Shown: positions 8,230 through 52,636 of the stretch, piece after piece
How the letters are laid out: every line of letters begins with the position of its first letter
Position numbering within the stretch: position 1 is the stretch's first letter
NCBI GenBank assembly: GCA_963781585.1
Contig: CAWAGQ010000006.1
Span: 438,084-502,083 of the forward strand
DNA length: 64,000 nucleotides
Origin: an uncultured Gemmatimonadaceae bacterium
Lineage (GTDB): Bacteria > Gemmatimonadota > Gemmatimonadetes > Gemmatimonadales > Gemmatimonadaceae
Reading direction: 5' to 3'
The notes under the pieces: generated by a model
What the model was told of the DNA's origin: nothing
The model's database searches: none
The model's input: the letters and a program-made list of their open reading frames with translations, nothing else
Made by a program: the position numbers and the translations under genes

Positions 8230-8389
8230 CACGGCTCCTGCCTTGCGGATCATGGACGGGTTGCGAATCGAAGTCTTTCGGGCGAACGCGAGCCTAGATC
8301 CCACGGCAATGACTGTCAAGATGTCACCGCCGGGCGACCGCATCGTTCCCCGTTCGTTACCACGCGGATAAACCGAGGCTGAAGGCAAG

Positions 8390-22235: not shown

Positions 22236-22321
22236 GCCCCGGCTCGCCCGGCGATGGATGCCAGGGGGTCTGCCCTGCGGCAAACCCAGGCTCTCCGGCC
22301 GCTTCATGCTGTCCCCGGCGT

Positions 22322-24088
22322 CTACTCGGGCGGCGCAATGTCGTCCAGTTGGTCGAATCGCAGGTTGCTCACGCCCTCACCCCGACCGGCTTGCTTCGAT
22401 CGGCCAAGCCAGAGATAGGTCTGCCCCGATGTCCAGCGCGCGCGCTGCCAGGCTCGCTCCACGATCACGCCGGCGCGCGGCACCTCCTCCTCGTTGATGA
22501 AGAACGGCGGCGGCACCTCGGTGAGGAGACGGCCGCGCGCGCCGGGTGCTCCCGGCATTCGCGCGCGCTGCAACTGGATCTCCGACGTGCTTCCCGCGAG
22601 ATGGACGGGCAGAAACGGGATCCAGTTGCTCGGCACCGTGGTGCCGGCGACGTACCGGATTGCCGCCGTGCCCGCGGGAACAAACGGCGGCGGTGGCGGC
22701 GTGCCGATGTCGAGCTCGTCGCCGCGCACACCGGCGCCGGCGGCCGATGGCACGACCTTCTCCACCGCCCACACCATCTTCGCCGCCTCGTCGCGCAGGA
22801 AATTGACCTTTTCGATCGGGTCGCTCTCCAGCATCTGGGCGATCGAGGAGGCCAGATAGAACCTGCTCGACGCCGATGCGGCGCCGCCGCGATCGGTATT
22901 CTGGAACATCGCCCATCGGTGCCAGGTGGTGCCTTCGCTCCGGCCGGCCGGCCGGATCAGCGTCTCCACGCCGAACACGTCGGTTACCACGATGCCCTCT
23001 ACGCTGCACAGGGTATTGAACGGCATTGGAAATGGAAGCATGAACCAGTCGTTCGAGTAGATCAGCCCGAACTCCGCGAAGACCAGGTGCAGGAGTCCCG
23101 TCGGTGACACGCCGATCGCGCCGAAGTCCGTCTGGTTCTCCTCCATCTGCCAGAAGCGCGGATTGGGCATGCCCTTGAAGCTGAGTGGCGCCGGAATGAA
23201 CGACGACAGAACCTCGGCGTCGGGCGGGGCGGTCGGCGTCGTTTCCCCGTCCGCGATCATCGCCTGGCGCGAGTCCAGATCGAACGAGTACCAGTCGATG
23301 TGGCCCTGATAGTACTCGTCGGCCAGAAGGACGCTCTGCTGCCCGGCCGGCGTCGCGAGGCTGAATCCGTACTCGAGCTGCCGCGTCTTCCAGGCATTCT
23401 CGGCCGGCAATGACGGCTGGCTGTAGGTCCGCGCGAACCACGCGAGCAGGGGCGCCGCGAGGTCATCCAGGGCTGTCTTGTCCGCGCCTGCGATCGTGCC
23501 CTCGGCATCGAGCCACTCGCGAAAACGCGTGAGCGCGGGATTCACGCCCGGCGTGGTCATGTCGCGGTACATCGCGTAGCCGTTCCACCACCGCGTTCTG
23601 GCCGCGCCGTAGAGCTGCGTTCCGCTGTAGTCGTTAGGCTCGGGAGCGAAAACGAGCGGATACTGCGCGATCAGCGCGTCCCGGTGCGCGGAGACGAGCG
23701 CGGCACCGAGTTTCCAGTACGACCGCGCGAGTTCGACGGCGAGCCCGAGGTCGCCGATGAGCATTTCGCGCTCGACGCGCGTCTCGATCGGGATCGTGTC
23801 GTCGTAACTCTGGACCGGCCCGGATCCGATCAACGCGCGGTCGACGTGCTGCTGCACGCTCAGGATTCGCGCGCCGATCGGCGTCGCGGCGTCCTCGCCC
23901 TGAAACTCGCCCATCTGCCACTGCCGCGTGAGCAGCCACATCGGGTCGCGCACCTCGGCGCGCAGGCTCCGGGTGAAGTCGGTGCTGCGCGGACTGGCCT
24001 CGAGCCGGTTGAACGCGGTCACCGTCGGGAGGCGGAACTCCGCCTCGTAGACGCTTTCGAGTGTGGCGATGGGAATGGCTGCGGTCAT
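22322..24088 (-). CDS. Conserved-type hypothetical protein, last gene of the DUF6603-like operon
   Basis: 588 aa; RLE..PR..DF..SLRAEVRDPMWLLTRQWQMGEFQGED, GMPNPRFWQME, AEFGLIYSNDWF, EEEVPRAG, GRGE..SNLRFD. Confidence 0.85.
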   Translation of the reverse strand: MTAAIPIATLESVYEAEFRLPTVTAFNRLEASPRSTDFTRSLRAEVRDPMWLLTRQWQMGEFQGEDAATPIGARILSVQQHVDRALIGSGPVQSYDDTIPIETRVEREMLIGDLGLAVELARSYWKLGAALVSAHRDALIAQYPLVFAPEPNDYSGTQLYGAARTRWWNGYAMYRDMTTPGVNPALTRFREWLDAEGTIAGADKTALDDLAAPLLAWFARTYSQPSLPAENAWKTRQLEYGFSLATPAGQQSVLLADEYYQGHIDWYSFDLDSRQAMIADGETTPTAPPDAEVLSSFIPAPLSFKGMPNPRFWQMEENQTDFGAIGVSPTGLLHLVFAEFGLIYSNDWFMLPFPMPFNTLCSVEGIVVTDVFGVETLIRPAGRSEGTTWHRWAMFQNTDRGGAASASSRFYLASSIAQMLESDPIEKVNFLRDEAAKMVWAVEKVVPSAAGAGVRGDELDIGTPPPPPFVPAGTAAIRYVAGTTVPSNWIPFLPVHLAGSTSEIQLQRARMPGAPGARGRLLTEVPPPFFINEEEVPRAGVIVERAWQRARWTSGQTYLWLGRSKQAGRGEGVSNLRFDQLDDIAPPE

Positions 24089-24095
24089 CGCGACC

Positions 24096-27000
24096 TCAGG
24101 TCAGGTTCGGATTGACGTAAAACGTCGTCAGCAGGGGCATCGCCGAGAGGTTGAGCCGATAATCCAGCGAGACGTTGAGCGCGAACTGCTGGAACTCCGC
24201 TATCACCGCCGGCAGAAGAACACCGAGCTCCGGGTTGGCCGCCCGCTGGTCGAGCAGCAGCGGCTCCACGGCGCGCATCTTCGCCCGGCGGAGGGTGTCG
24301 TTGAGGATTCCGACCAGCGCGTCCCAGCTCCAATGACCGGTCATTTCCGGAGGCACGGCGAGCAACAGCGCCTGCGGCGGCATGGCGTTCGGCCGATTGT
24401 AGTTGAAGGCCACACCGGTGCTCTGGTCCCGGGCCGGAATAGTCTCCGTCCACGAATCCACGAGAACACCGCTGCGCAGGGAACCGGCGGTGTACGCTGC
24501 GTCGCCGTGGGTGACGATCGACAGGGTATCGCTGGCGATGTCGTACGGCTCGCCGGTGGCGGGATCGGTGTCGGGAAGCCCAACGGCGAGCCAACTGTCC
24601 CGGGGGCGATAGGGAAGCTGCACCGCGCTCAGGTCGAGCGACGACGCGAACAGCGTTTCACGCAACAGGCGGATGCGTTCCCAGGCCGCGATCCTGGGGC
24701 GCACGTATGCGACGCCGCGAATCCACTCGTCTTCAGGTGTCGGCATCGCGAGCGTGTTCACGGCGTGATCGACGAGCTGCCCGTGATCGGCGTGCGATTG
24801 CATCAGCTCGCTCTCGTTGTCCAACGCGAATGCCGGGATCACCGGGAACGCGTCGCCGAGGATGGCTTTGCACGCGTCGCTCGCCAGGCCGACCGCCTTC
24901 TCGTTCGCGTCCGTGGCGGCGATGTCGGCGTCGGTGAGCGCCTTGTCGCTCGCCGCCCGGCGGGTGGCTGCTGCGTTCGCGGCGTCGATCGCCTGCGACA
25001 CGAGCGCCAGCTTCGAGCCGTCGCGGGTGACGTCCTGGGTGCGCGGAAACGCATCGGCAAGGCCAAAGGCGGCCAGGTGAATCAACTGCTCCTGCAGCAG
25101 CAGCATGTCGCTCGACGCGAACGTGAACGCGAGATCGGTGACGTCGGCGTCCTGCGCGCGAATCTCGTCGAACGCCTGGCCGAGCGTCGTGACATTCACG
25201 GCGCCGATCGAGGCGGTGAACGGCAGCCCGCGGATCGTCGAGAGCACGCCGTCGATCTGCGTCTGCAGCGCGGCGGCCCGCGCGCGCAGCTCGGCAAACA
25301 CGGATCCGGAGTCCGGCGTTCCCCCCTGCGTGGTGGAGGTGTGGTAGTCGCGCGCGTCGAGCGGACGGGAGTCGTGGAGCACTCGCTGCAGCGCGAGCAT
25401 CAGCGGCATCACCTCGGCCATGCTCAGCCTGGATGGATCGCCGGTGGGCGCGCCGAAGTCGATCTGCACGCGCGCGGTCTCGTCGAGTCCGTGGTCGGCG
25501 CGATAGCGCCAGGCGACGCGCGTCTCGATCTCCGAGGCTCCGGTGCGCCCGCCGTCGCCCGTGGCGGCGTCGGTCCCGAGGATCGAGATCAGGTCGATGG
25601 GCTGGAGTGCGAGGTCGGCGGCCGACATCGTCGCCGGGTTCACGAGTGTTTCGTCGTCCTGCCGCTCGGACACCTGCATGACGAAGTGATTCGGGGCGCC
25701 GAGGACGGCTCCGAGCCACTGATTCACTCCCGGCTCGAGCGAGGCGCGTGGCGTCATCGGCACTGGCCACGCCGCGGCCGCGGGATCGCCGGGATCGAGC
25801 CGCGTGAAATGAACCGCGACGCGCTGCGTGAACGTGAACCGGCTGCTGCGCGGCGTCCTGACGACGTCGAGCTGCGGGGGCACCTGCGCGTCCTTGATCG
25901 AGCCGAGCACCGCGCCCGCGCGATCGAAGTTGGACTGCACCATCTGATACGCGCTTTCGGCCAGCAGGAGATCGTTGACGGCATCGAGGGTGTCGGCGAT
26001 GCGGTCGCGCTCCGCGTTGAGCGCGGCCAGACGGGGCGCGGTCAGGACGGTTGCGTCGGCGCCGGTAATCGCCGCCCAGTTCGGCGACGCGGTCGCGGCG
26101 AGCGTCAGGCCGTTGACGACGTCGTAGGTGTCGACCGTTTCCTGCGCCCCGCCGGCGTCTCCGCCCGCGATGCGCATTCGCCGAATCGGAAACGCGACCC
26201 GGATGTCGAAGAGCAGGCCGTTCAGCACCTGGAGCGACGCGTCGGCCGAGGCGCGGTCGTGGATGCCGCGCTCGAACTGATAGCCAAGCAGCGCTTCCAC
26301 TGCCTGGCCGTTGCGCATCCCCTCGAGAATGAACATCGCCCGGCGGACCCGCTCCGAGGTGAGGTTCACCGCCATGACGTCGGGGTTGGTGTCGGTCGCG
26401 TGGCTCATGTACCCGGCGCGCAGCACGGCGGCGGCGGTCGCGTGATTGATCGACGGCGCGTGGACGAACCCGCCGTTGTCGGTGTATTCGCGCAGCGGCG
26501 TGCCCCTGGGTGAACGGAGCTTGTCGGGGACGTCCTGCACTGCGGCGAACGAAGCCGACGGTCGCACGTTCTCCACCCAGCCGAACCCGCCAAGATAGGA
26601 TCCGGGATTTCTGGTGGCGCCGCGCGCGGGGGGAACGCCGCGCAGCGTCTCGAGCCTGCCCTTGAAGAGCGCCGTCTGCCACGCGTCGAGCCGGTAGGTG
26701 CACGCATCCACATGCTCGGTGAAGCATCGCTCCAGGCGTGCGGTCGACCGACTGGCGAGCGAGTCGATGGATTCCCGCATCTGATCGAGGAACGCCGTCT
26801 CGCTGAGTGAAACGGTCGGCAGCAGGAGGTAGTCGGCGACGCGGAACGACTTGTACGGGCTGGCTGGGTCGATTGCGCCCACGGGGGCGCGCAGCACTTC
26901 CCATCGCGTGAGATCTCCGCCGGGTCGCACGTTGTGGAACGTGCTGGCGAGGGTCGTTGCCTTCGCGTCGACGCCCCGGCCCTTCATCCACAGGACCGCG

Positions 27001-29675
27001 CTCTTGTGGAGCTGCAGAATGAGGGCGTGTCGCGCCTGGAGATAGAGCAGCGCCGTCGGCACCGGCGCGCCGCCGAAGTTCTGGGCCGACAGCGCATCGA
27101 CCGACGTCGCGTCGCGCAGCCAGTGGAGATAGTTCTGGTGCGCAACGGTGTCGTACTCGCGGATCGGGTCCGTCTCGGACAACGGGACGCCGTCGATGAG
27201 ATTGGCCGCGTCGAGCGACGTCGTGAAATTCTGGAAGACGAGCTTGGTGAGCTCGAACAGGTTGCCCGTCAGGCCGGGGGCGGCCGGCAACCCTGCCCAG
27301 CTTCGCAGGAGATTGGTGACGTTGACGCCGCGGAGCCCCGCGGCGATGACCCGGTCGGATTCGGCGCCGCCGGCCTCGAAGTTCACGAGGTTGGCGAGAT
27401 ACTCCAGCGTGTAGGCAATCCGCTGCGCGAAGGTGACAGACCCGGGCTGGAGCCCGAGCACGTTGAGGAGCATGTCATCGGCGGCCAGACCCGGCTTGCC
27501 GGCGAACGCGAGCTGCGGAATGATGGCAGTCCAGATCGCGTCGAAGTACTGAAGGAGCTTGTAGAGCATCGGTCGAAACGGATCGGACTTCGCGGAGACG
27601 GCGGTCTCCTTCCACCTCACGAAATCGCTCGTCAGGAGGATACCGTACGGCTGATCGCCGATGCGGATGGCCGAGAGCGGCCCGCGACCGGTGACGTTGG
27701 CGACGAAGAAGTCGCGGAGCCGATCGCGTCCCGATTCGCTCACCAGCGGGTCCAACAGGGTGTCGAAGTAGTAGCCGAGCGTCGCGGGATAGAGCGCGGC
27801 GTTCATCGCCACCGCGTCGCTGTAGTCCGTGTTGTCACTGTTGAAGACGAACTGCAGTGTCTCGTAGGAGACACCGAGCCCGTCGGCGAGCAGCCTGCCG
27901 TCGGTGGTTGAGGCGGGGGTAAAGAGCGGGACGTCGAGGCCGGTGACCTCCTGCGTGTGCGTGAGCAGGTCGTTGACGGAGTACCCCGATCCGTCGCCGT
28001 CGGTGTTGTTGGTGGCGGTGCCCTGGGCCAGAAGCGACAGGCCCTTTGGCGAATGCTGATGGTTCGACAGCAGTGTCTCGAGCGCCTCGCCGCCCGACGC
28101 CGCGGAGCGCGACGCCATCACCCCGAGCACAAGGATCCTGTCGAAGCCGGATTGGAGCTGCGCCGGGGTGATGGGGATGCGAAAGCCCATTCCCAGGCTC
28201 ACGGCGCGGTCGAAGTTGGACGCCCAGTCGTAGTTCGGGCCAAACGTGAGTTGGCCATCGACCGTGACGAACGAATCCTCGTTGTCCGCCTGGTCGGCGT
28301 CCGCGGCGAGGTCGAGCGGCTCGGGTCCGAGCATCAGCTCGTCCGGGATCACGTTGCCCACGACCTCCTTCACGATCGTGCCGCCGGTGTACAGGATCGC
28401 CACGAACCGGTCGGGGAGCACGTTGGAGCGCGGCGCGCGCGACCATGAGCTGGTGCTGGTGAGGTCGTGCGGCGGAAAGGTGAGATCGTCGGTAGTGGCC
28501 AGGGTGCTGAGCGCGGACCAGTTGGTCGGCCGCGTTTGTCTCGCCACCCACGCCGAGCGCGATGGGCCGAAGAGCGCGGCGAAGTTCTTCCACGTTTCGG
28601 TCTTGCGGGAGCCCTTGCCGCTGTCGGTGTCCTTTTCGATGCCGAAGATCGATCGCCAGTACTCTTCGCCGGCGGCGACCTCCCGGTCGGTGAGCTCGTT
28701 CTCGTGCGTATGAACGGCGATGTCATCGGGATAGACGCGAAGCCACAGCTCGGGCGACGGCACCGGCGCAACCGCTCCCACGGCGAGAGCGCCTGCCGGT
28801 GCAACGCCCGGCGGGCCCGCCGCCGGACTTCCGGCTGGAATTCCACCCGGAGGCGGCGGCTGGCTGACGAACCGCGTCTCGATGCGTACCGGCAGGAGGA
28901 GGAACGGGGTCGTGTCCGGCATCTGCGCGACGGCCGACCGGGGATGTGGGTCGACGTAGATACCGGTGATCGTGTCGTGCAGCGCCCCGGTGGTCGCCTT
29001 CCACGACCCCTTGGTCTTGGCATACTGCGCGTTCAGCGCCGCGAGCCGTTCCCGAATCTGGTCCGGCGTGGGTCCGGCCGCGCCCTTGAGGGCGCCGATC
29101 TCCGCCTGGTTGTCGTCGATCGCCTGACGCGTGTCACTCGTTTGCGCGACGATCTTCTGCAGCGCCTTGCGCGCTGCGGCCGCCGCTTGCTCGATTGCGG
29201 CCTGATTGTCGGTGGCGGCCGCCAGCGACCCCGTCGTATCGGCGATCTGTGCGCGCGTGGACTCGATCGAGGCCTCGAGGGAATCCGCCAGCGTGCGGTC
29301 CTTGGGCCGGGCGGTTTGCGCGAGCGCGATGCGACTCTCGAGCTGGTCGAGCGCTGCGCGAAGCGCGGTGAGCGACTGCTGCAGGAACGTGATGCGTTGC
29401 CTGCCGGCGTCCACGCTGCCGATCGCGGCGCGCGCCGACTGCTCGGCGGCCGACAGCGAGCGCAGGGTGGACTCCAGCTGCGCGATCTCGGCGCGTCGAG
29501 CCGTAACTTCGGCGGGGTCGGGCGGGCCGAGCTTGCCGCCGGCCTGCTGACTCTTGCGGAGCGCGGCGGTGTCACGCGAGATCTGCGTCCGCAACGCGTA
29601 CATGCGCTGCCCGAGATCATCGCGCTGCGCGCGGAGTCGGTCGATTACCGGCAGGTGGTCGTCGAGGGTAGCCAT
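24096..29675 (-). CDS. Very large hypothetical protein with N-terminal coiled coil
   Basis: 1859 aa; heptad-rich first ~230 aa; LLPVRIETRF, LRVYPDD, YRLDAW, GGFVHAPS..HA..AAVLRAGY, LLGYQFER, PNAMPPQALLLAVPP. Confidence 0.85.
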   Translation of the reverse strand: MATLDDHLPVIDRLRAQRDDLGQRMYALRTQISRDTAALRKSQQAGGKLGPPDPAEVTARRAEIAQLESTLRSLSAAEQSARAAIGSVDAGRQRITFLQQSLTALRAALDQLESRIALAQTARPKDRTLADSLEASIESTRAQIADTTGSLAAATDNQAAIEQAAAAARKALQKIVAQTSDTRQAIDDNQAEIGALKGAAGPTPDQIRERLAALNAQYAKTKGSWKATTGALHDTITGIYVDPHPRSAVAQMPDTTPFLLLPVRIETRFVSQPPPPGGIPAGSPAAGPPGVAPAGALAVGAVAPVPSPELWLRVYPDDIAVHTHENELTDREVAAGEEYWRSIFGIEKDTDSGKGSRKTETWKNFAALFGPSRSAWVARQTRPTNWSALSTLATTDDLTFPPHDLTSTSSWSRAPRSNVLPDRFVAILYTGGTIVKEVVGNVIPDELMLGPEPLDLAADADQADNEDSFVTVDGQLTFGPNYDWASNFDRAVSLGMGFRIPITPAQLQSGFDRILVLGVMASRSAASGGEALETLLSNHQHSPKGLSLLAQGTATNNTDGDGSGYSVNDLLTHTQEVTGLDVPLFTPASTTDGRLLADGLGVSYETLQFVFNSDNTDYSDAVAMNAALYPATLGYYFDTLLDPLVSESGRDRLRDFFVANVTGRGPLSAIRIGDQPYGILLTSDFVRWKETAVSAKSDPFRPMLYKLLQYFDAIWTAIIPQLAFAGKPGLAADDMLLNVLGLQPGSVTFAQRIAYTLEYLANLVNFEAGGAESDRVIAAGLRGVNVTNLLRSWAGLPAAPGLTGNLFELTKLVFQNFTTSLDAANLIDGVPLSETDPIREYDTVAHQNYLHWLRDATSVDALSAQNFGGAPVPTALLYLQARHALILQLHKSAVLWMKGRGVDAKATTLASTFHNVRPGGDLTRWEVLRAPVGAIDPASPYKSFRVADYLLLPTVSLSETAFLDQMRESIDSLASRSTARLERCFTEHVDACTYRLDAWQTALFKGRLETLRGVPPARGATRNPGSYLGGFGWVENVRPSASFAAVQDVPDKLRSPRGTPLREYTDNGGFVHAPSINHATAAAVLRAGYMSHATDTNPDVMAVNLTSERVRRAMFILEGMRNGQAVEALLGYQFERGIHDRASADASLQVLNGLLFDIRVAFPIRRMRIAGGDAGGAQETVDTYDVVNGLTLAATASPNWAAITGADATVLTAPRLAALNAERDRIADTLDAVNDLLLAESAYQMVQSNFDRAGAVLGSIKDAQVPPQLDVVRTPRSSRFTFTQRVAVHFTRLDPGDPAAAAWPVPMTPRASLEPGVNQWLGAVLGAPNHFVMQVSERQDDETLVNPATMSAADLALQPIDLISILGTDAATGDGGRTGASEIETRVAWRYRADHGLDETARVQIDFGAPTGDPSRLSMAEVMPLMLALQRVLHDSRPLDARDYHTSTTQGGTPDSGSVFAELRARAAALQTQIDGVLSTIRGLPFTASIGAVNVTTLGQAFDEIRAQDADVTDLAFTFASSDMLLLQEQLIHLAAFGLADAFPRTQDVTRDGSKLALVSQAIDAANAAATRRAASDKALTDADIAATDANEKAVGLASDACKAILGDAFPVIPAFALDNESELMQSHADHGQLVDHAVNTLAMPTPEDEWIRGVAYVRPRIAAWERIRLLRETLFASSLDLSAVQLPYRPRDSWLAVGLPDTDPATGEPYDIASDTLSIVTHGDAAYTAGSLRSGVLVDSWTETIPARDQSTGVAFNYNRPNAMPPQALLLAVPPEMTGHWSWDALVGILNDTLRRAKMRAVEPLLLDQRAANPELGVLLPAVIAEFQQFALNVSLDYRLNLSAMPLLTTFYVNPNLT

Positions 29676-29681
29676 GGCCGG

Positions 29682-36226: not shown

Positions 36227-36236
36227 GCGTCACCCA

Positions 36237-37673
36237 TCAAACGGTCTGTACTGATTCGTGCACCCGCGCGTCCGGGCCGGCGTCTCCCGCGGCCGCCCGC
36301 TCCAGCATCTCCTCCACCGACGTGATCCCGCTCACGAGATGGAGAAGCGGTACGGTGTTCGCTGCGACCGCGGCCGCGAGCGCCGCGCTCCCCTGCTCCT
36401 GCAGCACCACCGACATTCGCAGTACGACATTCGCCGGCGACACGTCCGCGATCTCCGGCGGAATGCGATGTCCGGGCTCGCGCGCGCTCTTGATGAAGTG
36501 CCCGGTGAACGCGGGCCCCTGGTACCGATGCCAGGCGACCTTCACCTGGCGATTGTCATTGAGCAGCCGGTTGATCTCATCACCGTGTTCGCGGAACATC
36601 GCGAGCGCCGCGCGCCCGACCTCCAGGGTGTCCAGCACTCTCACGATGTCGTCGAGGTGGTCGGGACCGGGCGCCTGAAGCGGCTCGGCGACCGAAGCGC
36701 TGCCGAGCGGGATGGTTCCCGGGGTGCCGGAATTGATGATCGTGATCCCCATCGCCGCCGTGACGTCGGTGATGATGTTCGCAAAGCTGTCATTGGTATT
36801 CGTGTTGACGCCCCAGCACAGCCCGACCACCACGTTCTGGTCGTTGACCAGCGCCGAGCCGGAGTCGCCGAACCACTGGAAATGGTCGAAGCCGGCATCG
36901 GGAGCGATGTGGATCTGGTTCGCGCGGGCCGGAATCTGCTTGGCCGGATTTCCGGCGGTCGGCCCCTTCGGGTCGGTAACCGTGCCGGTCGTGAGGCCGG
37001 TGGTGCGCCCGCGCTTCATCACGTGGTCGCCCGGCGCCACGGTCGACCCGCCGGCGTTCAGCGTCGCCGCGCCGAGAATCAGACCGATGTCGATGATCTC
37101 GTTCATGAACCCCGGTGCGCCGGTGATGCGCGCGATGGCGCAGTCGACCAGTCCGTTGTTGAGCGAGTTCACGACCACGCCCACGATGTTACCCTTGCAG
37201 CAGCAGCAACACGAGATCGTCGACTGTCCGATCTTCTCGCCGTTCGACGCGCCGCCCGCCATCATCACGTGGTGGTTGCTCAACATGACGATCGAGCCGT
37301 CGCTGTCGAGCCGGGCGATGCATCCCATCGTGCCGACCTCGCTCGACGAGTCGTTACCGATCTGGATGCCGCCGAGGAGGGGGCGGTACCTGCCATCGTC
37401 GTCGGCGAGCGTCGGTACGGGCTCCACGAGCACGTCGGTCTTCACGCCAAGGACCTCGACGGGAATCACTTTCTTCCGCGGCAGTTCGTTCGCCGGGAGT
37501 TTCTTCTCCACATAGACGCGGAAGACGATTTGCTCGGTCGGTTTGCCCGCGGTCTCCTTGAGCCCGACCGAGACGTGGCGCACGCCGGGATATGCCATCA
37601 ACTGCTCGCGCGCCTTCGGCAGCAGCGCCGAAAGCCGGGTGAACTCGGCTACCCGTTCGTGTCGCGGTCTCAT
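36237..37673 (-). CDS. Trypsin-like (S1, Nal1-like) serine protease with N-terminal prodomain, CCCCC motif and C-terminal helical domain
   Basis: Prodomain VSVGLKET..FRVYVEKKLP..IP.EV.GVKTDV, then YRPLLGGIQI. Catalytic triad LSNHHV / VDCAIA / GDSGS. ATGA overlap at the start. Confidence 0.85.
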   Translation of the reverse strand: MRPRHERVAEFTRLSALLPKAREQLMAYPGVRHVSVGLKETAGKPTEQIVFRVYVEKKLPANELPRKKVIPVEVLGVKTDVLVEPVPTLADDDGRYRPLLGGIQIGNDSSSEVGTMGCIARLDSDGSIVMLSNHHVMMAGGASNGEKIGQSTISCCCCCKGNIVGVVVNSLNNGLVDCAIARITGAPGFMNEIIDIGLILGAATLNAGGSTVAPGDHVMKRGRTTGLTTGTVTDPKGPTAGNPAKQIPARANQIHIAPDAGFDHFQWFGDSGSALVNDQNVVVGLCWGVNTNTNDSFANIITDVTAAMGITIINSGTPGTIPLGSASVAEPLQAPGPDHLDDIVRVLDTLEVGRAALAMFREHGDEINRLLNDNRQVKVAWHRYQGPAFTGHFIKSAREPGHRIPPEIADVSPANVVLRMSVVLQEQGSAALAAAVAANTVPLLHLVSGITSVEEMLERAAAGDAGPDARVHESVQTV

Positions 37674-38080
37674 CGTGCACCCCCCGCCAGGGTTCCGGCA
37701 CGAATCCGCGCGAACAGGTCGGAGAGACTGGCACACTCGCTGGCCGCTGCCAGCACCGGGGACGCGTACCGCCCTACCGTAGCCGCCAGCTCGCGGCTTC
37801 CGCTCTGCTGCAGCGCGTCGGCCATGCGGAGCAACAGCCGCTCGAGCGACACCCCGTCGAACTCCTTGCGTACCGGCGTGTGCTCGTCGAATCCGCTGTC
37901 CATCGCCGAGGTGAGGAACTGCGGACCATGGTTGCGCTGCCACGCCACCATCACCCCGCGGTTGTTGTTCACCAGGCGATTCACCTCGTCCACGTGCGAC
38001 ATGATCACGCCCAGGATCTCGCGTCCCGGCGGCGACGCGTTCAGCTCCTCCTCGAAGTACTCGAGTTTGCGCATCGTCAT
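37670..38080 (-). CDS. Stand-alone paralog of the protease C-terminal helical domain
   Basis: GREILGVIMSHVDEVNRLVNNNRGVMVAWQRNHGPQF aligns with GRAALAMFREHGDEINRLLNDNRQVKVAWHRYQGPAF of the downstream protease. ATGA overlaps on both sides. Confidence 0.8.
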   Translation of the reverse strand: MTMRKLEYFEEELNASPPGREILGVIMSHVDEVNRLVNNNRGVMVAWQRNHGPQFLTSAMDSGFDEHTPVRKEFDGVSLERLLLRMADALQQSGSRELAATVGRYASPVLAAASECASLSDLFARIRAGTLAGGAR

Positions 38081-38751
38081 ACCGGTTGTGGTGCGGTATC
38101 GGAGTACAGCCAGATGCCGGTGGTCGCGTCGACCACGTGGCGCATGTGGTTGCGCGCGTCGGGGTGAATGTTGGCCATCGCCGCGTAGCCTTCGGCGGCC
38201 ATCTCGATACCGCGCGTCTGAATGATCCAGACGTTGCGCGGGCTGTAGTGCCGGGTGTGGTGGGTGACGAGGTAGGCGATGATCTGCTTCGCCGACTTCG
38301 GCGGCACCGGTCCGGTCAGCTCGAGCTGCTTGAGCGCATTGTAGAAGTCGACGTCGGGCTCGGCGTCGGGCAGACCGACGAACCGTTCGCCGAGGTTGCG
38401 AAGCTGCCGCTCCTCCTCCGGTGCGCTGGGGAAAGGCGCGATCGGCCGCGCGCCCGCCGCCCACGGCGAGGTGATCTTGTAGACGATCGCCGTCCGTGGA
38501 TTCACCACCGTGTCCACGCTCTTGATGTTCGGGAAGCGCGGCCGCCCGCCTCGGGCCGTGATTTCGTCGAGCCGGTCGAGGTGCAGACGCGGGTGCGTCT
38601 CGTCCTTGCGCCAGTGGCGTTCATCCTCGGCCGACGTCCTGAGGAAGGGAACGAATGTGCGCTCGACCGTCGCCGGCGGCGCGGTGATGGCCTCCGGCTT
38701 CACCTCGAAGCCCAGGGTGCGCGTCGCGCGCTCGATGGCAGGGTTGGTCAT
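38077..38751 (-). CDS. Hypothetical protein
   Basis: 224-aa ORF starting 10 nt after the protease stop and overlapping the next start; no known motif. Confidence 0.7.
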   Translation of the reverse strand: MTNPAIERATRTLGFEVKPEAITAPPATVERTFVPFLRTSAEDERHWRKDETHPRLHLDRLDEITARGGRPRFPNIKSVDTVVNPRTAIVYKITSPWAAGARPIAPFPSAPEEERQLRNLGERFVGLPDAEPDVDFYNALKQLELTGPVPPKSAKQIIAYLVTHHTRHYSPRNVWIIQTRGIEMAAEGYAAMANIHPDARNHMRHVVDATTGIWLYSDTAPQPV

Positions 38752-38761
38752 GGTCGATCGG

Positions 38762-40726
38762 CTACGGATTCACGTCCCAGATGTCGAGCGCATCGGCGCC
38801 GACGAAGTCACAGCCGTGCTCGGCCGCGTCCGTCACCGAGCAGTTCGCAGCCACCAGCCCGGCGCCCACGTATCCGCCGGCGATCAGTCCCGACGACGAG
38901 CTGCTCGAGAACGCCGTGCCCGTCTTGTACTGGCAGTGCGAGATGTGGCACTTGGAGCCGGCGGTCCCCGGCATCTGCGAGCCAAGGTCGTAGACCTCGG
39001 CGGTAAAGTCGACGCGATCGCCCGACTCGGCGATCCACCCCGCGTTCGTGAAGTTGTCCTTCGCGACACTGCCCACGAAGAAATCCCAGCGTCCGGTCGC
39101 CGGATCCACCACGCATTCGTACTCCTGCGTCGTCCCGACTACGGGGAACCCGGGGTCGTTGTGGATGGTGTTGTGGTAGTCCGCGGGATTCGGTCCCGCC
39201 TGGACTTCGTACTTGAGATACTGGACGACCGCCGCCGCGCCGCTGCTGCGCCGCCGCGTGATGCCGATCTGCCCCCACTTCGTGATATCGCCCTTGGTCA
39301 CCCCCGTCCACACTGTGGTGAACGCCTCGTAGGTTGCCGTGCCCTCGCAGGGCAGATTCATCGGGAAGGTGTCGATCGTCGCCTTGCAGCCGAGCAGCCG
39401 GGGGACGTGCTTGCTCGCCCCGGCGTACCAGCGCGGCCCGCCGGCGATACGCGGCGCGCACGACGAGCTGCTCGAGCGGCTTGATGATGATCGGACCGAC
39501 GAGCTCGACGACGCACTGGATGAGGAACTGCTTGACGAAGACGAGCTGACGGACGACGACGAGCTGCTCGGCGATGCACTGCTGGACGACGAGGCGACCG
39601 CCGACCCCGCGGCGCTGCTCGACGAACTCCCGGGAAGTTCCGCCGCGGCGCTCGAGCTGCTGCCGCAGTTGCTCGACGGAATGCCGAGCCCGGTGCCTGC
39701 GTCGCCTGCGATCCTGATGCCCATCGCCGCGAGCACGGTCCCGATGTGATTGGCGACGCCACGGTTCCGTGTGCCGCGGTCGGCGCCCCACAGCAGGCCG
39801 ACGACCTTGCCGTCGCTGTTGACGATCACCGATCCCGAGTCCCCGAAGTAGGCAAACCTGGGGAACCCGGGCAGGGGATTGATCAGGATCTGACTTCCCT
39901 CATACAGCACGTCGACCACGGTGCCGCGCGTGAGCCGCGTGGCCGACCCGCGCTTGCGCACCTCTGAGAAACAGACGGCCTGCGCCACCCCGGTCAGCGC
40001 TCCGATGTCCACCACCTGGTTCAGGGTACCACCCGCCGTCACGCCGCTCACCGCGTCGCCGTCGAGCTGCACGATCGCACAATCGACCTGCGTCGTCTTC
40101 TGCGAGCGCAGCACCGCGCCGATCTCGTTGAAGGTGCAGCAACAGCAGCAGGTGATATGTCGCGGCTGCCCCACCTTCACGCCGTTGCAGGCAAAGCTCG
40201 TCGGCGCGCCCGACGCCGCGGACCCACTCGATGCCGAACCGGCGCCGACGTTGAACTCCGTGCCGGCGCACGCGATGTGCTGGCTCGTCAGCGCCACCAT
40301 CGTCCCGTCGGTCGTCTGCGCGAGACAGCCGATCGTCCCCATGCCGCGGGTATTGTCGCCCTCGAACTTCGCCGTGCGGAGCTGCGATCCCCCCTGGAGC
40401 GGCCGGTACTTGGTGGTGTCGCGATTCGGCGCGAACGCGACCAGCGAGCTCGAGGACATCGCCTCGAGGGCGGGTGCGACGATCACGTCCGTGCGTACGC
40501 CGAACACGTCGGCCGGCACGCGATACGAAACAGGAAGAACCGCGGCGTCGAGCTTCTCGGCGACGTACACGCGATACGCCAGCTCGGGCACCAGCTCGCC
40601 CCGGATTTCGCGCGCACCCACACCGACACTCAGTACGCCGGGATAGCGCGACAGGATCGCCGACGCCTCGTCGTATCGGTCGACCAGCTGCTGCTGCCGG
40701 TTGAGGACCTCGCGATCGATCGGCAT
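38762..40726 (-). CDS. Trypsin-like (Nal1-like) serine protease with CCCC motif, poly-Ser linker and C-terminal beta domain (glutamic peptidase G1/neprosin-like?)
   Basis: Prodomain SVGVGARE..YRVYVAEK..GVRTDV, triad LTSQHI / VDCAIV / GDSGS, ~70-aa Ser-rich tract, then a domain with VWTGV..WGQIG..DFTAEV. Confidence 0.82.
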   Translation of the reverse strand: MPIDREVLNRQQQLVDRYDEASAILSRYPGVLSVGVGAREIRGELVPELAYRVYVAEKLDAAVLPVSYRVPADVFGVRTDVIVAPALEAMSSSSLVAFAPNRDTTKYRPLQGGSQLRTAKFEGDNTRGMGTIGCLAQTTDGTMVALTSQHIACAGTEFNVGAGSASSGSAASGAPTSFACNGVKVGQPRHITCCCCCTFNEIGAVLRSQKTTQVDCAIVQLDGDAVSGVTAGGTLNQVVDIGALTGVAQAVCFSEVRKRGSATRLTRGTVVDVLYEGSQILINPLPGFPRFAYFGDSGSVIVNSDGKVVGLLWGADRGTRNRGVANHIGTVLAAMGIRIAGDAGTGLGIPSSNCGSSSSAAAELPGSSSSSAAGSAVASSSSSASPSSSSSSVSSSSSSSSSSSASSSSSVRSSSSRSSSSSCAPRIAGGPRWYAGASKHVPRLLGCKATIDTFPMNLPCEGTATYEAFTTVWTGVTKGDITKWGQIGITRRRSSGAAAVVQYLKYEVQAGPNPADYHNTIHNDPGFPVVGTTQEYECVVDPATGRWDFFVGSVAKDNFTNAGWIAESGDRVDFTAEVYDLGSQMPGTAGSKCHISHCQYKTGTAFSSSSSSGLIAGGYVGAGLVAANCSVTDAAEHGCDFVGADALDIWDVNP

Positions 40727-40729
40727 CGC

Positions 40730-43102
40730 TCAGGCCGTTGTCCCGATAACGATCCGCCGTCGGCTGTACGAACGCATGTTCGTCTCGATCAGCGCGTCGC
40801 GACAGGTGTACCCGACGGCCTCCACGCTTCGCATCACCGCGTCGAGGATCTCGCCGTTGTGGTAGTCGGCTGCCGTCTCGAACAGGCACACGCGCGGCCG
40901 GTAGTGCCGCACGAGGAATCGCATGTTCGGTTCGGCGAGCTGCGCGTCCCATGAGCAGTAGCCGTGGCTCAGCCCGAGGGCTACCAGCACGTCGGCGTGC
41001 TCGGGGAGATTCGCGTGGGCGAGGTGCTTCTCCTCGATTTGCTCCCACCGCCGCCCGGGATACTCGGCGCGCAGCCGGGCGATGATCGCCGGATCGATGT
41101 CGAAACCGAAGACGCGGTCGTGGCGATAGTACTCGTTGAGCGGCGAAAAGCCGCAGTAGGCCTCGAAGATCCGGTCGTCCGGCCGCAGCAGCGGACCCAG
41201 ATGGTCCATGATCATGCTGCCGCGGTCGGATGGCGCGGTGAGGTAGCTCCACTTGTCCTCGACGCGCGGCGGGCGCGCGACCGCGACCAGGCTCAGCCCC
41301 GCGTCGAGGTGGAGCGTCGTCACTTCGATGCCGCGCGTACGGAGCGACTGCATCGTCCACGACACACCGCAGTTCGGATTCGTAGAGTCGTGAAACAGCA
41401 CGACGCCGTCCGACATCAACGTCGAGTAATTGTCGAAGTCGCGCAGACTCTGCTGGTGCGTGTGCGCGCCGTCGATGACCACCAGCCCGACATACCGGCC
41501 TTGCGTCATGTCGCGCACCGCGTCCAGCGCGTCGTCGGAGCGCATTTTGAAATGCCGAATCCACGGCGCAAGGCCAAAGAGACCGAACCACTTCTCGACT
41601 TCCGTGGAGTGCTCCCAGTGACCGCGCCCGTCCCAGGCCGGATCACCGCTGCCGGCATACGACGGATCGATGAAGATCACCTGTCCGTGCCCGTTGTCCT
41701 GCAGCCCACGAGCGACGCAGAGCGGCGAGAATCCGCGGGCCGAGCCGATGACCACGGCGAAATCGGGGCGGAGGTTGCGCGCCATACTATAGTAGAGCCA
41801 GCCGAACCCGAGATCGCCGCTGCCGGTGTTCTGCGACAGGGGCTCGGCGTACGCCACCGCCTTTTCGATGAACTCGTTCAGGGACAACGCGGCGCGTGTT
41901 GAGGCGCTGTGCTTCCCCGGAATCGGCACCAGCTCCGTTTCACCGGACGCGCTGCTCCAGCCGAGCGAGCCCGGTTGCAGCACGGTCGACGGAACGCTGT
42001 CGGCGCCGATCTCCAGTGCGAGCCGGTTGCCCGAGAGGTACACGTCCCACCTTCGTTCGGTGTCGGTCGCCCCGATTCCCACCCGACCGTCGCTCATGAA
42101 CGACATCGGCCAGTAGCCGTACCCGTCGCGCACGAACCGATAGACAGTGGTGATGAGCTCGCGTCGCGCCTCGATGACGTCGCGCTGGCCGGCGCGCATC
42201 CCGCCGCTGCCGACGACGCCGTTCCATGATCGGCGCAGCTCCTCGAGGAATCCGCGGCACTCGGCCTCGTATCGAAACGACGGCACCGCGGGATTGTCGC
42301 CGTCGAAGTTCCACTTTGCACGGTTCCGATGCTGAAACAGCAGGTCGCCGCTGAAATCGTATTGGAAGAACGTGCCGCCCTGGAGGAGCATCGCGTGCCG
42401 CGGCATGGCGTACGGCTGGCCGACTTTGCGGAACGCGAAGTGGAACGTCTCCTTGTCGCCGTGAACGTGGCGATAATAGAAGTCGGAGTGGTCGTTGTAG
42501 AACTTCGTCAGGACGAGCGCCTGCCAGCAGCGCTCCTTGTTGACGACGATCTGCCCCGACTCGAACTCCGGCTCATCGAGATACGGCACGCCGAAGACGC
42601 CCCAGATCGGGCTGTCGCCCGGCATGCGGCCCAGGTCGGGCCAGAAGAGCGCGCCCGTCTGCCGGTACTCCCAGGACTCGAAGAGGAATTCCGGGTTCCT
42701 CGCGACGTAATTGTCGGCGTCGAGCAGCATCACTTCGCGGAACGGCGAGTGAATGATCGAGTATGGTTTGACTTCCCAGCCACGGAGAATCCGCGCGGGA
42801 TGCACGTCGCGAACCGCCAGCGCGTCGATGCACTCGACGCCGAGGGGCGCGATCAGCTCCTCCATGAACGGGTCGATTTCGTTCGCGCCGAGATACCAGA
42901 GCTGCACCGGCAGCGTGCATCCGACGTGACGCAGCAGGGATATGGCGATCCAGGCGTTCGTGAAGTACGTCGTACCGCCGCCGCACATCACGATCCCGCG
43001 GCCGTGGAACGTGTCGGGGTAGTCGCCGATCGTGGCGATGAAGGCCTCGGCGCGGCTGCGCGCCGTGGTGTCGGCGAGCGCTTCGTCGGTGAACAGTTCC
43101 AT
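40730..43102 (-). CDS. GT71/MNN2-like mannosyltransferase fused to two SAM-methyltransferase-like domains
   Basis: GRGIVMCGG, GWEVKPYSIIHSPFREVMLLDADN, TGALFWPD, EFESGQIVVNK, HGDKETF; then VIGSARGFS..IDGAHT..FHDS (Methyltransf_24-like) and IFEAYCGF..GFDID. TGATG overlap at the start. Confidence 0.8.
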   Translation of the reverse strand: MELFTDEALADTTARSRAEAFIATIGDYPDTFHGRGIVMCGGGTTYFTNAWIAISLLRHVGCTLPVQLWYLGANEIDPFMEELIAPLGVECIDALAVRDVHPARILRGWEVKPYSIIHSPFREVMLLDADNYVARNPEFLFESWEYRQTGALFWPDLGRMPGDSPIWGVFGVPYLDEPEFESGQIVVNKERCWQALVLTKFYNDHSDFYYRHVHGDKETFHFAFRKVGQPYAMPRHAMLLQGGTFFQYDFSGDLLFQHRNRAKWNFDGDNPAVPSFRYEAECRGFLEELRRSWNGVVGSGGMRAGQRDVIEARRELITTVYRFVRDGYGYWPMSFMSDGRVGIGATDTERRWDVYLSGNRLALEIGADSVPSTVLQPGSLGWSSASGETELVPIPGKHSASTRAALSLNEFIEKAVAYAEPLSQNTGSGDLGFGWLYYSMARNLRPDFAVVIGSARGFSPLCVARGLQDNGHGQVIFIDPSYAGSGDPAWDGRGHWEHSTEVEKWFGLFGLAPWIRHFKMRSDDALDAVRDMTQGRYVGLVVIDGAHTHQQSLRDFDNYSTLMSDGVVLFHDSTNPNCGVSWTMQSLRTRGIEVTTLHLDAGLSLVAVARPPRVEDKWSYLTAPSDRGSMIMDHLGPLLRPDDRIFEAYCGFSPLNEYYRHDRVFGFDIDPAIIARLRAEYPGRRWEQIEEKHLAHANLPEHADVLVALGLSHGYCSWDAQLAEPNMRFLVRHYRPRVCLFETAADYHNGEILDAVMRSVEAVGYTCRDALIETNMRSYSRRRIVIGTTA

Positions 43103-44091
43103 CAGTTCGCCAGTGCCGTCGAACGCGCGTCCGGGTTCGCGTACGACAGCGATCCCGCCGCGTAGTACAGTTCGATCCGCCGGACCACGTCTCCGGCAGT
43201 GATCATATCGAGGCAGTGCGGCAACTCGCCGACCACGTCGGTGCACAGATGCTCGGGCAGATCCTTCTCGTCGCCGTCGCCGAGCGGCTTCACCCGCGAC
43301 TTCCAGCAGCCGCCGTCGTCGCAGCAGGGAAGGGCGCCGTTGGTGTGAATGAACTGATGGTGGGGGTACGCTTCCCACTGCGGGGGCTCGCGCCCGCCCG
43401 CGACGACCACACACGCGCGCTGCCTCGGCATGCCCGGCTTCGTCTCGATCGCCGCCGCCAGGTGCATCAGCAGGCTCACCGGCGTGAGCACACCCGCGGC
43501 GTGATACACCAGACGCACGAGCTGGCGCAGATCTGTCTGGCCGCGGAGATCGATCACGCCGTTGAGTGGGGGGTGATGATGCTGGGTCTCACCCACCTGC
43601 ACGAACTGAATCCTGCCGGCGAAGTGATCGATCACGTCCTGATAGCGATCCGGGTCCCACCACTTCGTGGTGAAGTCGTACTTGCCGCCGGCGACCACGA
43701 TCCAGAATGGCGTATCTTCGCCGGTGAGCTCCTGCACCTGCGACATCCACGACTTCTCGAGACTGGAGAGGGGGACGTCGCCCTTGAATGCGGTCGGCCG
43801 GATGTTGAGCGACAACCGCGCGTTCAGGTGGTCAATGAATCCGAAGAGAAAGTGATAGGGAAGCGTGTTGCTCTGGTGAATGAGCGGATACTCGCATGGG
43901 ATCGTGTCGACATCGGGCTCAGTCTGATCGAGCGGGGCGATGAAGACGTTGTTCTCCCAGAGTTGCGGGCACGACGTCCGGACGTCGGTGATGAACTGAC
44001 CCGGATAGCAGCGATGGAGATCGCGAACCGCTGCCGTCAGCATCACGATGTCGCCGGGCGATTGAAAGTTCGTGAGAACGATCTTTCGCAT
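43102..44091 (-). CDS. Glycosyltransferase family 9-like (heptosyltransferase-like) protein
   Basis: SPGDIVMLTAAVRDL, TTKWW, FVQVG, IDLRGQTDLRQLVRLV, LMHLAAA, Cys-rich PCCDDGGCWK, CLDMIT...V. Confidence 0.85.
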   Translation of the reverse strand: MRKIVLTNFQSPGDIVMLTAAVRDLHRCYPGQFITDVRTSCPQLWENNVFIAPLDQTEPDVDTIPCEYPLIHQSNTLPYHFLFGFIDHLNARLSLNIRPTAFKGDVPLSSLEKSWMSQVQELTGEDTPFWIVVAGGKYDFTTKWWDPDRYQDVIDHFAGRIQFVQVGETQHHHPPLNGVIDLRGQTDLRQLVRLVYHAAGVLTPVSLLMHLAAAIETKPGMPRQRACVVVAGGREPPQWEAYPHHQFIHTNGALPCCDDGGCWKSRVKPLGDGDEKDLPEHLCTDVVGELPHCLDMITAGDVVRRIELYYAAGSLSYANPDARSTALAN

Positions 44092-52590: not shown

Positions 52591-52636
52591 ACTTGATGCG
52601 AGTCGTTCACGCCTTTCCACCCTCCCGGCTCATCCT

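Follow-up and report, generated by a model that had tools for sequence, protein, structure and literature searches.

What is built by an operon in which four giant proteins without functional annotation are encoded behind a pair of proteases and a pair of glycosyltransferases? The question is raised by a 64,000-nucleotide stretch of DNA from an uncultured Gemmatimonadaceae bacterium (GenBank assembly GCA_963781585.1, contig CAWAGQ010000006.1, positions 438,084 to 502,083 of the forward strand), here called the window, in which ten open reading frames (ORFs), g1 to g10, lie head to tail on the minus strand and span 22322-44091. A sequence-only reading had envisaged a large protease-matured, glycosylated complex or particle, with toxin delivery, membrane attack, lipid bridging and a surface structure as candidate functions, any of which may still apply. 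Comparison with other genomes leads to a different picture. The last four genes, g7-g8-g9-g10, are a conserved recurrent module, which the window carries complete, g7 being followed on the same strand by the g8, g9 and g10 homologues at gaps of -4, 6 and 7 nt. The genes that precede the module vary from locus to locus. We tentatively interpret the system as a modular enzyme-deploying machine, in which a mobile, membrane-active core of four proteins would be combined with an exchangeable hydrolase payload, a function that we regard as somewhat more doubtful than secure.

The evidence for the module comes from a profile-guided scan of 185,579 species, each represented by one genome. It returned 594 pattern-matching stretches, 437 of which encode a DUF6603 relative. 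The best 79 of these 437 loci, a set biased to closer relatives and comprising 834 locus ORFs, were compared in detail. Core partners were sought by tblastn with the window proteins and the counts were corrected for contig ends. On this basis g8 was present in 75 of 75 loci with at least 600 bp of sequence beyond g7, g9 in 66 of 66 with at least 3.9 kb and g10 in 54 of 58 with at least 9.6 kb, and the order and strand of the core genes were collinear in 78 of the 79 loci. Control genes from the flanks of the operon gave 0-2 weak matches across the loci. The sole exception to collinearity is a Bacteroidota metagenome-assembled genome (MAG; locus L058, 1-15443), in which the arrangement is circularly permuted to g9-g10-PhoD-like-g7-g8. 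The sequence-only reading had taken the four large proteins for a recurrent uncharacterized cluster and was open to refutation had the core genes failed to co-occur elsewhere. They do co-occur, in fixed order across phyla and also on plasmids; co-occurrence holds for the four-gene core across 11 phyla and in archaea and fails for the proteases, which occupy a variable slot, and for the glycosyltransferases, which are confined to one clade.

The loci that lack g10 (L062, L064, L072 and L078) belong to a Saprospiraceae-type clade. In three of them g9 is followed by an unrelated gene with an HhH motif, cluster c19 (L062, 13978-15093; L072, 18914-20071; L078, 18063-19031), and in L064 the available sequence does not extend past the g9 ORF. 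The Saprospiraceae-type loci with c19 also lack the hydrophobic segment of g8 described below. We considered c19 as a divergent g10 and rejected this, since it gives no match to the g10 hidden Markov model (HMM) and carries the HhH motif.

The gene directly upstream of the module varies between loci. The upstream slot was defined as a co-directional gene within 120 bp of g7 and was inspected in 71 entries with a full-length g7, 69 of which could be scored. A Nal1-like protease, often in two to four tandem copies, occupies the slot in 23 of the 71, a PhoD-like phosphatase with an N-terminal DUF7800 in eight, an M64-like metallopeptidase in seven, an S8 subtilase in six and a phospholipase D-like (PLD-like) protein in three. 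Ten entries have something else, including an M14 carboxypeptidase, an M10-like peptidase and a galactose-oxidase-like protein; for two the class was not assigned and 12 have no gene in the slot. The PhoD-like class with DUF7800 is found upstream in both Chitinophaga and a haloarchaeon. No slot enzyme displays an N-terminal signal-like segment in a crude scan. Because the slot holds other enzymes, other genes or nothing in many loci, the proteases are not part of the core, and the slot fits better as a cassette for an exchangeable payload than as the place of a dedicated maturation protease.

A second observation concerns g7 itself. Trees were built from slices of g7 and the number of changes of slot class that each requires was counted, using the five enzyme classes (47 entries), for which the minimum is four changes. 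The slices comprising residues 1-225 and 226-429 require five and four changes, respectively, compared with ten for residues 430-655, 13 for 655-880, 12 for 880-1143 and eight for the whole protein. When all seven states are used (69 entries), residues 1-225 need 14 changes, whereas slices of the conserved domain matched in length need 25-29. Distant g7 homologues, from Streptomyces and archaea, align only from about residue 341 onward. Since the slice trees of this region need the fewest class changes, we judge from the sequences that the ~430 N-terminal residues of g7, which precede the Pfam domain, have been passed on along with the upstream gene, and that the remainder of the core has repeatedly recombined against them. 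Such co-segregation is the pattern expected of a cargo-specific adaptor, and this is the role we would assign to the N-terminal region.

These two observations bear directly on the possibility that maturation by the proteases and decoration by the glycosyltransferases turn the giant proteins into a processed, glycosylated particle or surface structure. Several features are consistent with it: in the window both kinds of gene are translationally coupled to the core, in many loci two to four tandem protease paralogues lie directly upstream, and plant NAL1 is described as a cage-forming protease (PMC12012508). Of the 69 scorable loci, however, just 29 have a Nal1-like or S8 protease directly upstream (23 and six, respectively), the slot being without such a protease in the other 40, which carry non-protease hydrolases, other genes or nothing. 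The glycosyltransferase genes are present in just two of the 79 loci, both from Gemmatimonadaceae. Neither 'protease-matured' nor 'glycosylated' can then be kept as a property of the system as a whole, and we consider maturation of this kind improbable.

The glycosyltransferases deserve description as a property of the window and its nearest relatives. Gene g1 (43102-44091, 329 amino acids) encodes a GT9-like enzyme that is only just significant against Pfam Glyco_transf_9 (E = 3.6e-05, 23.6 bits, cut-off 22). The product of g2 (40730-43102, 790 amino acids) combines a GT71-type glycosyltransferase, Mannosyl_trans3 (2.3e-34), with Methyltransf_24 (6.3e-16). The two loci with homologues of both genes, L001 and L047, form the sister clade of the window, and their g1 homologues display 82-84% identity. 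The pair is, from this distribution, a lineage-specific add-on and not core. It is probably tied to a poly-Ser linker in g3 (38762-40726, 654 amino acids), a protease with a further C-terminal domain of no assigned family. The tract occupies approximately residues 345-422 (~75 residues), and one 40-residue window of it is 82% Ser. Poly-Ser linkers occur in only four of the 834 ORFs, three of which are the g3 orthologues of exactly the three glycosyltransferase-bearing loci (the window, L001 and L047); the fourth belongs to L078, whose contig stops immediately upstream. The sole Ser-rich acceptor-like tract of the operon is thus in a protease and none is present in g7-g10, a further point against decoration of the giant proteins. 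GT9-type enzymes O-heptosylate serines of autotransporter adhesins in the cytoplasm, and because of this precedent it is plausible, by analogy, that the g3 linker is a putative O-glycosylation acceptor.

The proteases encoded by g3 and g6 (36237-37673, 478 amino acids) match PHROG 20754 'protease' (2.9e-27 and 1.1e-34, respectively). Against Pfam Trypsin_2 and Nal1_C both remain below the cut-off (0.0078 for g6 with Nal1_C), and relatives of g6 reach 41.3 bits on Nal1_C, for which the cut-off is 26.1. A GDSGS motif and candidate His and Asp residues are visible in both sequences. With a family match and a catalytic serine motif in place, we assign g3 and g6 by sequence as trypsin-fold (Nal1-like) serine proteases. 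They resemble the NAL1-type enzymes in the matches to Nal1_C and NAL1_N given by these two proteins and their relatives and in the GDSGS motif; the bacterial proteins differ in an additional C-terminal helical domain of ~117 residues, in a CCCCC motif and in their position upstream of DUF6603. The five consecutive cysteines lie inside the protease domain (HITCCCCCTF in g3, TISCCCCCKG in g6), and a CCCC run was seen in 18 of 102 helical-domain proteins of at least 300 residues in a search of representative sequences. This motif could be a metal-binding site, a lipidation site or a redox switch.

The helical domain comprises approximately residues 347-460 of the 478 in g6 (437-550 in a longer, 568-residue ORF call), and g5 (37670-38080, 136 amino acids), paralogous to the g6 C-terminus, is a stand-alone copy. 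No Pfam model describes the domain, and at E <= 1e-3 it is found in 1390 representative clusters from a library of 1.84 billion representatives. Family scans of 97 of the 102 listed members with at least 300 residues gave Nal1_C 22, Trypsin_2 16, NAL1_N 12, Trypsin eight, PKD types three and S8 one. Among the 834 locus ORFs the domain HMM matches 48, all of which are Nal1-like proteases, S8 proteases, stand-alone copies or one fused ORF, and for this reason the domain belongs to the proteases and not to the system as a whole. We had considered it as a universal docking tag. This was rejected since the domain is confined to serine proteases, and none of the M64-like, PhoD-like or PLD-like upstream proteins carries it. 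PKD domains are present on the g3-type proteases of L064, L072 and L078. Finally, g4 (38077-38751, 224 amino acids) has no family in Pfam, NCBIfam, PADLOC or PHROGs; its third-position GC (GC3) is 0.88 and its sole homologue among the 79 loci is in L047, at 70% identity.

We turn now to the core proteins, which together contain ~4,600 residues. Core gene 1, g7 (32795-36226, 1143 amino acids), had been labelled DUF6603-like. The family is correct and the label too cautious, as g7 is a full DUF6603 member: it matches PF20248 with E = 8e-134 and 447 bits (cut-off 27), residues 427-997 covering profile positions 1-501 of 502. The mean column identity is 45% and the closest relatives, in Gemmatimonadaceae MAGs, are 74-77% identical. 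The AlphaFold2 (AF2) model of g7 (pLDDT 77.7, pTM 0.49) predicts a helical N-terminus to about residue 225, followed by some 41 antiparallel β-strands up to residue 878. Over 67 homologues these strands, about ten residues long on average, are amphipathic, with a Kyte-Doolittle (KD) value of +2.28 on the apolar face and -0.93 on the polar face. No fused DUF6603 forms of more than 2,001 residues were found, which is weak evidence. Matches of the model in BFVD are generic, β-rich and tail-fibre-like, with TM <= 0.15, and were rejected as evidence for a phage origin of g7.

In the PDB the best fold matches of the g7 model are giant outer-membrane barrels, namely LptD, the FimD/PapC ushers and Deinococcus SlpA, with E values from 1.8e-4 to ~3e-3; the six at E <= 0.001 are all membrane barrels of this size (SlpA, LptD) and the ushers lie just above that line. 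The resemblance is limited by the absence of a signal peptide, by TM-scores of 0.09-0.15 and by the occurrence of the family in two groups that lack an outer membrane, the actinomycetes and haloarchaea. An ordinary outer-membrane role for g7 is unlikely because of the missing signal peptide and the presence of the module in these two groups. The same strands might alternatively form a lipid groove of the AsmA/TamB/VPS13 type, in a lipid-handling or envelope-bridging apparatus whose neighbouring enzymes remodel the envelope. The strongly apolar strand face would suit such a groove, the PLD-like and PhoD-like neighbours act on phosphoesters, and two chorein-N proteins are matched in BFVD, although only with probabilities of 0.25 and 0.08. 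These fold matches are weak, and the top 50 PDB matches include no AsmA/TamB or VPS13 structure. Diderms, actinomycetes and haloarchaea share the module despite their differing envelopes, and it is both rare (the 437 of 594 stretches from 185,579 species genomes) and mobile, unlike housekeeping envelope machinery. We regard a lipid-bridging apparatus as distinctly improbable.

Core gene 2, g8 (29682-32798, 1038 amino acids), contains one strong central hydrophobic stretch, residues 552-602 (~50 residues by hydropathy scan), which is kept in 31 of 37 homologues. It has no Pfam, NCBIfam or PDB relative, and Pfam over all members of the g8 alignment gives no recurrent family, the best being found in three of 37 members with E = 0.0028. 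A match to 'midcut-by-XrtH' (18.4 bits, cut-off 45) was set aside as resemblance to the hydrophobic segment only. In core gene 3, g9 (24096-29675, 1859 amino acids), a coiled coil spanning approximately residues 1-240 precedes a large conserved body; the matches in NCBIfam, PADLOC, Pfam and the PDB are all of coiled-coil type, and the members of the g9 alignment likewise give only coiled-coil families in Pfam. Core gene 4, g10 (22322-24088, 588 amino acids), is the last gene of the operon. It has 978 homologues, and all names among the best 120 are 'hypothetical protein'. In its AF2 model (pLDDT 63.6), which gives no PDB fold match at E <= 0.001, residues 1-77, 280-283, 285-289, 291-355 and 361-415 are below 50 pLDDT, yet they are among the most conserved columns. 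Since these conserved segments are not predicted to fold alone, they are probable interfaces.

Further searches did not link the four proteins to one another or to known structures. Sequence searches of the PDB, with g7 and g9 as single sequences and with all four core proteins as profiles, retrieved nothing beyond coiled-coil or low-complexity noise; alignment of the four core profiles with one another by hhalign detected no shared domain; and the ESM Atlas placed g8 and g9 in unnamed clusters only. No family in Pfam, NCBIfam, PHROGs or PADLOC was found for g8, g9 or g10 beyond the coiled-coil resemblance of g9. Database names add little, relatives of g7 being 'DUF6603 domain-containing protein' and the others 'hypothetical'. 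A search of the open literature retrieved no paper naming DUF6603, PF20248, DUF7800 or DUF7801, and broader keywords gave nothing relevant. Some distant homologues carry additional domains: an archaeal g10 homologue has two lamin-tail domains (LTD), archaeal g9 homologues are named 'BGTF surface domain' by PGAP and a Streptomyces homologue of the N-terminal part of g8 is named 'VCBS repeat'.

How did such a module come to be distributed so widely? According to record titles the 79 loci are from Bacteroidota (41), Acidobacteriota (15), Gemmatimonadota (five), Pseudomonadota (four), Ignavibacteriota (three), Actinomycetota (three), Chloroflexota (two), Verrucomicrobiota (two), Deferribacterota, Nitrospirota and Myxococcota (one each), 11 phyla in all, with one locus unassigned. 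In a FastTree tree of 71 g7 sequences the phyla are intermixed: a gammaproteobacterium is the partner of Nitrospira, Nannocystis that of Limnocylindrales, and the Gemmatimonadota sequences are split between two positions. Such intermixing indicates that the core has been transferred horizontally between phyla. In an independent set of 72,556 plasmids g7 matches 13 records, g8 the same 13, g9 12 of them and g10 the 13 plus one more. Four of these records are haloarchaeal megaplasmids, and the core order of the window is kept on plasmids of Streptomyces europaeiscabiei and of the archaeon Salinigranum marinum. No DUF6603 relative was found in 50,697 phage records.

The plasmid-borne modules adjoin tyrosine-recombinase trios (S. 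europaeiscabiei, Rhizobium lusitanum) and toxin-antitoxin genes. On the S. europaeiscabiei plasmid (L080) a tandem pair of tyrosine recombinases lies at 4124-8278 with a further one downstream at 25546-26091, and on the R. lusitanum plasmid (L085) the trio occupies 1-2432; in both, pentapeptide-repeat proteins are adjacent to the module. On a plasmid of Streptomyces sp. NBC_01724 (L086, 2598-5837), PLD-like and DUF2235 genes, the latter of the Tle1-type lipase family, are encoded on the strand opposite to the module, 6-9 kb upstream of it. Elsewhere DUF6603 paralogues occur two in tandem (L023, 4718-19190; L011; L032). The order in L023 is PLD-like, g7, a 713-residue gene without assigned family, g7, g8, g9, each g7 having its own upstream gene. 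In L011 a protease-helical ORF continues into g7 in the same frame, which may be a real fusion or an assembly indel error.

The strongest alternative to an enzyme-deploying machine arises from this distribution. In an anti-phage or abortive-infection system the four-protein core would sense infection and the exchangeable hydrolase (protease, phospholipase D or phosphatase) would kill or arrest the infected cell. Sporadic, horizontally transferred occurrence over 11 phyla and into archaea, swappable effector-like enzymes, typical of defence systems, and plasmid copies next to recombinase trios and toxin-antitoxin genes are all in keeping with it. The flanks provide a further hint of defence-island neighbourhoods: 150 of 222 flanking proteins were sampled and 120 scanned, and 16 of the 120 match PADLOC at E <= 1e-5, a count without a matched control, among them TIR, a type II methyltransferase and PDC-M29A (1e-193). 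The core itself does not fit so well. None of the ten proteins matches PADLOC beyond coiled-coil noise (PADLOC-DB v2 gives no match for nine of the ten and only the coiled-coil region of g9, E = 2e-4 to 7e-3), and no NTPase, nuclease, nucleic-acid-binding or sensor-type domain was found in the core in Pfam or NCBIfam. The 45% mean column identity of g7 would be unusually high for a sensor. The M64, M14, S8, PhoD and galactose-oxidase-like classes and the PKD, LTD and poly-Ser features are extracellular in style. A defence function is in our judgement unlikely. In two Chitinophaga loci (L066, 4472-6201; L067, 4463-5698) the PhoD-like gene is immediately preceded by one for a PDC-M29A-type AAA ATPase (PADLOC E = 1e-190 to 1e-193). 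A PD-(D/E)XK-like ORF comes after the ATPase gene in L066, and this is probably a separate defence pair.

Is the module a variant of a known delivery machine? The Tc (ABC) toxins and the Rhs/teneurin cocoons are similar in combining several giant signal-less proteins, an exchangeable enzymatic payload, the lack of a dedicated ATPase and a large β-sheet structure. They differ in that no RHS/YD, TcA or TcB family is found in Pfam for the ten proteins, that the g7 model matches the folds of Tse5 and teneurin only with probability 0.06-0.09 and that the payload here is a separate gene, not a C-terminal hypervariable region. Type VI secretion systems (T6SS), extracellular contractile injection systems (eCIS) and polymorphic toxins place a conserved machine beside variable hydrolase genes, with effector-adaptor modularity. 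The likeness here is that the part of g7 next to the effector gene co-varies with the upstream enzyme. Contractile injection systems are nonetheless distinguished by components for which Pfam, NCBIfam and PHROGs give no family in the operon or the other window genes scanned: sheath, tube, baseplate, VgrG/PAAR and AAA+ ATPase. The statement of the sequence-only reading that no T6SS/eCIS, VgrG, Rhs, phage or defence gene is present stands, as no such family is reached at a meaningful score in these libraries or PADLOC. So does its description of the system as undescribed: within the libraries searched and the folds modelled (g7 and g10), nothing in the core connects it by sequence, profile or convincing fold to a known system of secretion, injection, toxin, defence or compartment type, g7 belonging to a family whose entry gives no function and its partners g8, g9 and g10 lacking any Pfam or NCBIfam model.

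The mention of compartments is prompted by encapsulins, in which cargo genes lie upstream of the shell gene. The four proteins might by analogy form an intracellular scaffold that sequesters dangerous hydrolases in the cytoplasm. The absence of detectable signal peptides, the cargo-like genes immediately upstream of structural genes and the cargo-class-specific N-terminal region of g7 are in favour of this. Against this, Pfam and PHROGs detect no HK97-fold or bacterial microcompartment (BMC) shell protein, the PKD, LTD and poly-Ser features point outward and g8 possesses a membrane-type segment. We find sequestration very improbable.

The model that we favour, that of an enzyme-deploying machine, can be set out as follows. 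The products of g7-g10 would assemble into one large complex acting at a membrane. The ~41-strand β-sheet of g7, hydrophobic on one side, would serve as a conduit or membrane-inserting surface; g8 would contribute its central hydrophobic hairpin, in most lineages; g9 would provide a coiled-coil stalk and a large body; and the conserved non-folding segments of g10 would act as interfaces. The hydrolase encoded directly upstream of g7 would be the payload, held by the first ~430 residues of g7 as a payload-specific adaptor. In the window the payload would be the pair of Nal1-like serine proteases g3 and g6, with g1 and g2 probably O-glycosylating g3 on its poly-Ser linker while it is still in the cytoplasm. 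The machine would serve to export signal-less enzymes of a normally extracellular type, or to deliver them into a target cell or membrane, independently of Sec and Tat. The model draws on the conserved core order, in the 79 loci and the plasmids alike, on its breadth of occurrence, on the variable slot, on the co-segregation of the g7 N-terminus and on the short junctions of the operon. Two further sets of features argue for it. The PKD and LTD domains, the 'BGTF surface domain' and 'VCBS repeat' names and the poly-Ser linker with its dedicated glycosyltransferases look like extracellular-type add-ons, and the apolar strand face of g7, the barrel-type fold matches and the g8 segment give the core a membrane-active appearance.

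Several observations weigh against the model. Of the 69 scorable loci, 12 have no co-directional gene within 120 bp upstream of g7 and therefore the core can stand alone. Linkage of the DNA alone, with a recurrent breakpoint at the domain border, could give the same N-terminal pattern in g7 as an adaptor. The TM-scores of the g7 fold matches, equally low in the PDB and BFVD, mean that only a β-meander character is shared by the predicted structure with membrane barrels. Six of 37 homologues, as well as the Streptomyces copy, lack the hydrophobic segment of g8. Neither an ATPase nor any other energy source was found in the core (Pfam, NCBIfam), and no recognizable immunity gene was seen. The restriction of the helical domain to serine proteases and the PADLOC matches in the flanks, both described above, count on the same side. 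A stronger form of the model, which we think rather unlikely, would have the module be a previously unrecognized delivery or toxin machine shared horizontally by at least 11 bacterial phyla and haloarchaea, consisting of four giant proteins unrelated to those of any known secretion, injection or toxin system and no ATPase, in which the DUF6603 sheet is the translocation conduit or membrane inserter and the first ~430 residues are a plug-in adaptor that chooses the hydrolase, be it a protease, phospholipase D, phosphatase or metallopeptidase.

The arrangement of the genes in the window is compact. The nine junctions from g1 to g10 measure -1, 3, 10, -4, -4, 10, -4, 6 and 7 nt; the g2 start overlaps the g1 stop by 1 nt and ATGA overlaps join g4/g5, g5/g6 and g7/g8. 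This agrees with the spacing of 10 bp or less, or ATGA/TGATG overlap, originally described for ten co-directional genes, and the original gene labels mostly hold as well (GT9, if marginally; GT71, now Mannosyl_trans3 plus methyltransferase; the proteases g3 and g6; the helical domain g5). The same is true of signal peptides: a crude hydropathy scan detected no N-terminal signal-like segment in any of the ten proteins. Start codons were chosen by GC3, which is 0.83-0.87 in the chosen frames of g1, g2, g5 and g6 and 0.47-0.67 in possible 5' extensions; for g1 the start at 44091 separates a core at 0.83 from an extension at 0.67. The maximal ORFs of nine of the ten genes, the exception being g5, have GC3 of 0.82-0.90. 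This contrast, with homologues elsewhere for all ten, leads us to conclude from sequence statistics that they are more than chance ORFs. A 191-residue ORF on the 3' side of g10 (21732-22307), with GC3 of 0.67, overlaps the convergent DoxX-like gene (GC3 0.90) that meets the operon downstream; owing to its low GC3 and the lack of homologues (0 of 79 loci) it is probably not a gene.

On the other side, ~390 nt separate the 5' end of the operon from an ADOP-family permease gene (44480-46909; NCBIfam E = 2e-227). This gene, on the minus strand, and a second at 47231-49705 on the plus strand form a divergent pair of duplicated permeases with MacB_PCD and FtsX domains directly upstream of the operon. 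Beyond them, 49846-53449 holds LigD (phosphoesterase-ligase-primase/polymerase) and Ku genes as a divergent non-homologous end-joining pair, followed by a DUF72 gene, and 55024-58104 (minus strand) encodes a UvrD-type helicase with an RNase_T exonuclease domain inserted between the N- and C-terminal helicase domains. Two ankyrin-repeat proteins are encoded at 11035-12012 (plus strand) and 17250-18545 (minus strand). The DNA of the window is ~67% GC and chromosomal-looking. A scan for promoters and terminators gave no more matches than the shuffled expectation, and a tRNA scan for island borders found none.

Whichever function applies, ~4,600 strongly conserved residues are without functional annotation and three of the four families, g8, g9 and g10, are without any model. 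The modularity of payload and adaptor offers an experimental handle in the N-terminal 430 residues of g7, and cultured, non-pathogenic carriers exist, among them in Chitinophaga, Pedobacter, Hymenobacter roseosalivarius, Nannocystis and Streptomyces. Were its function instead defence, the module would be unusually designed, having neither an NTPase nor a nuclease domain in its four-protein core. If the core does move or deploy enzymes, it would represent a new route of protein deployment for diderm bacteria, monoderm bacteria and archaea, one for which no known secretion component is needed.

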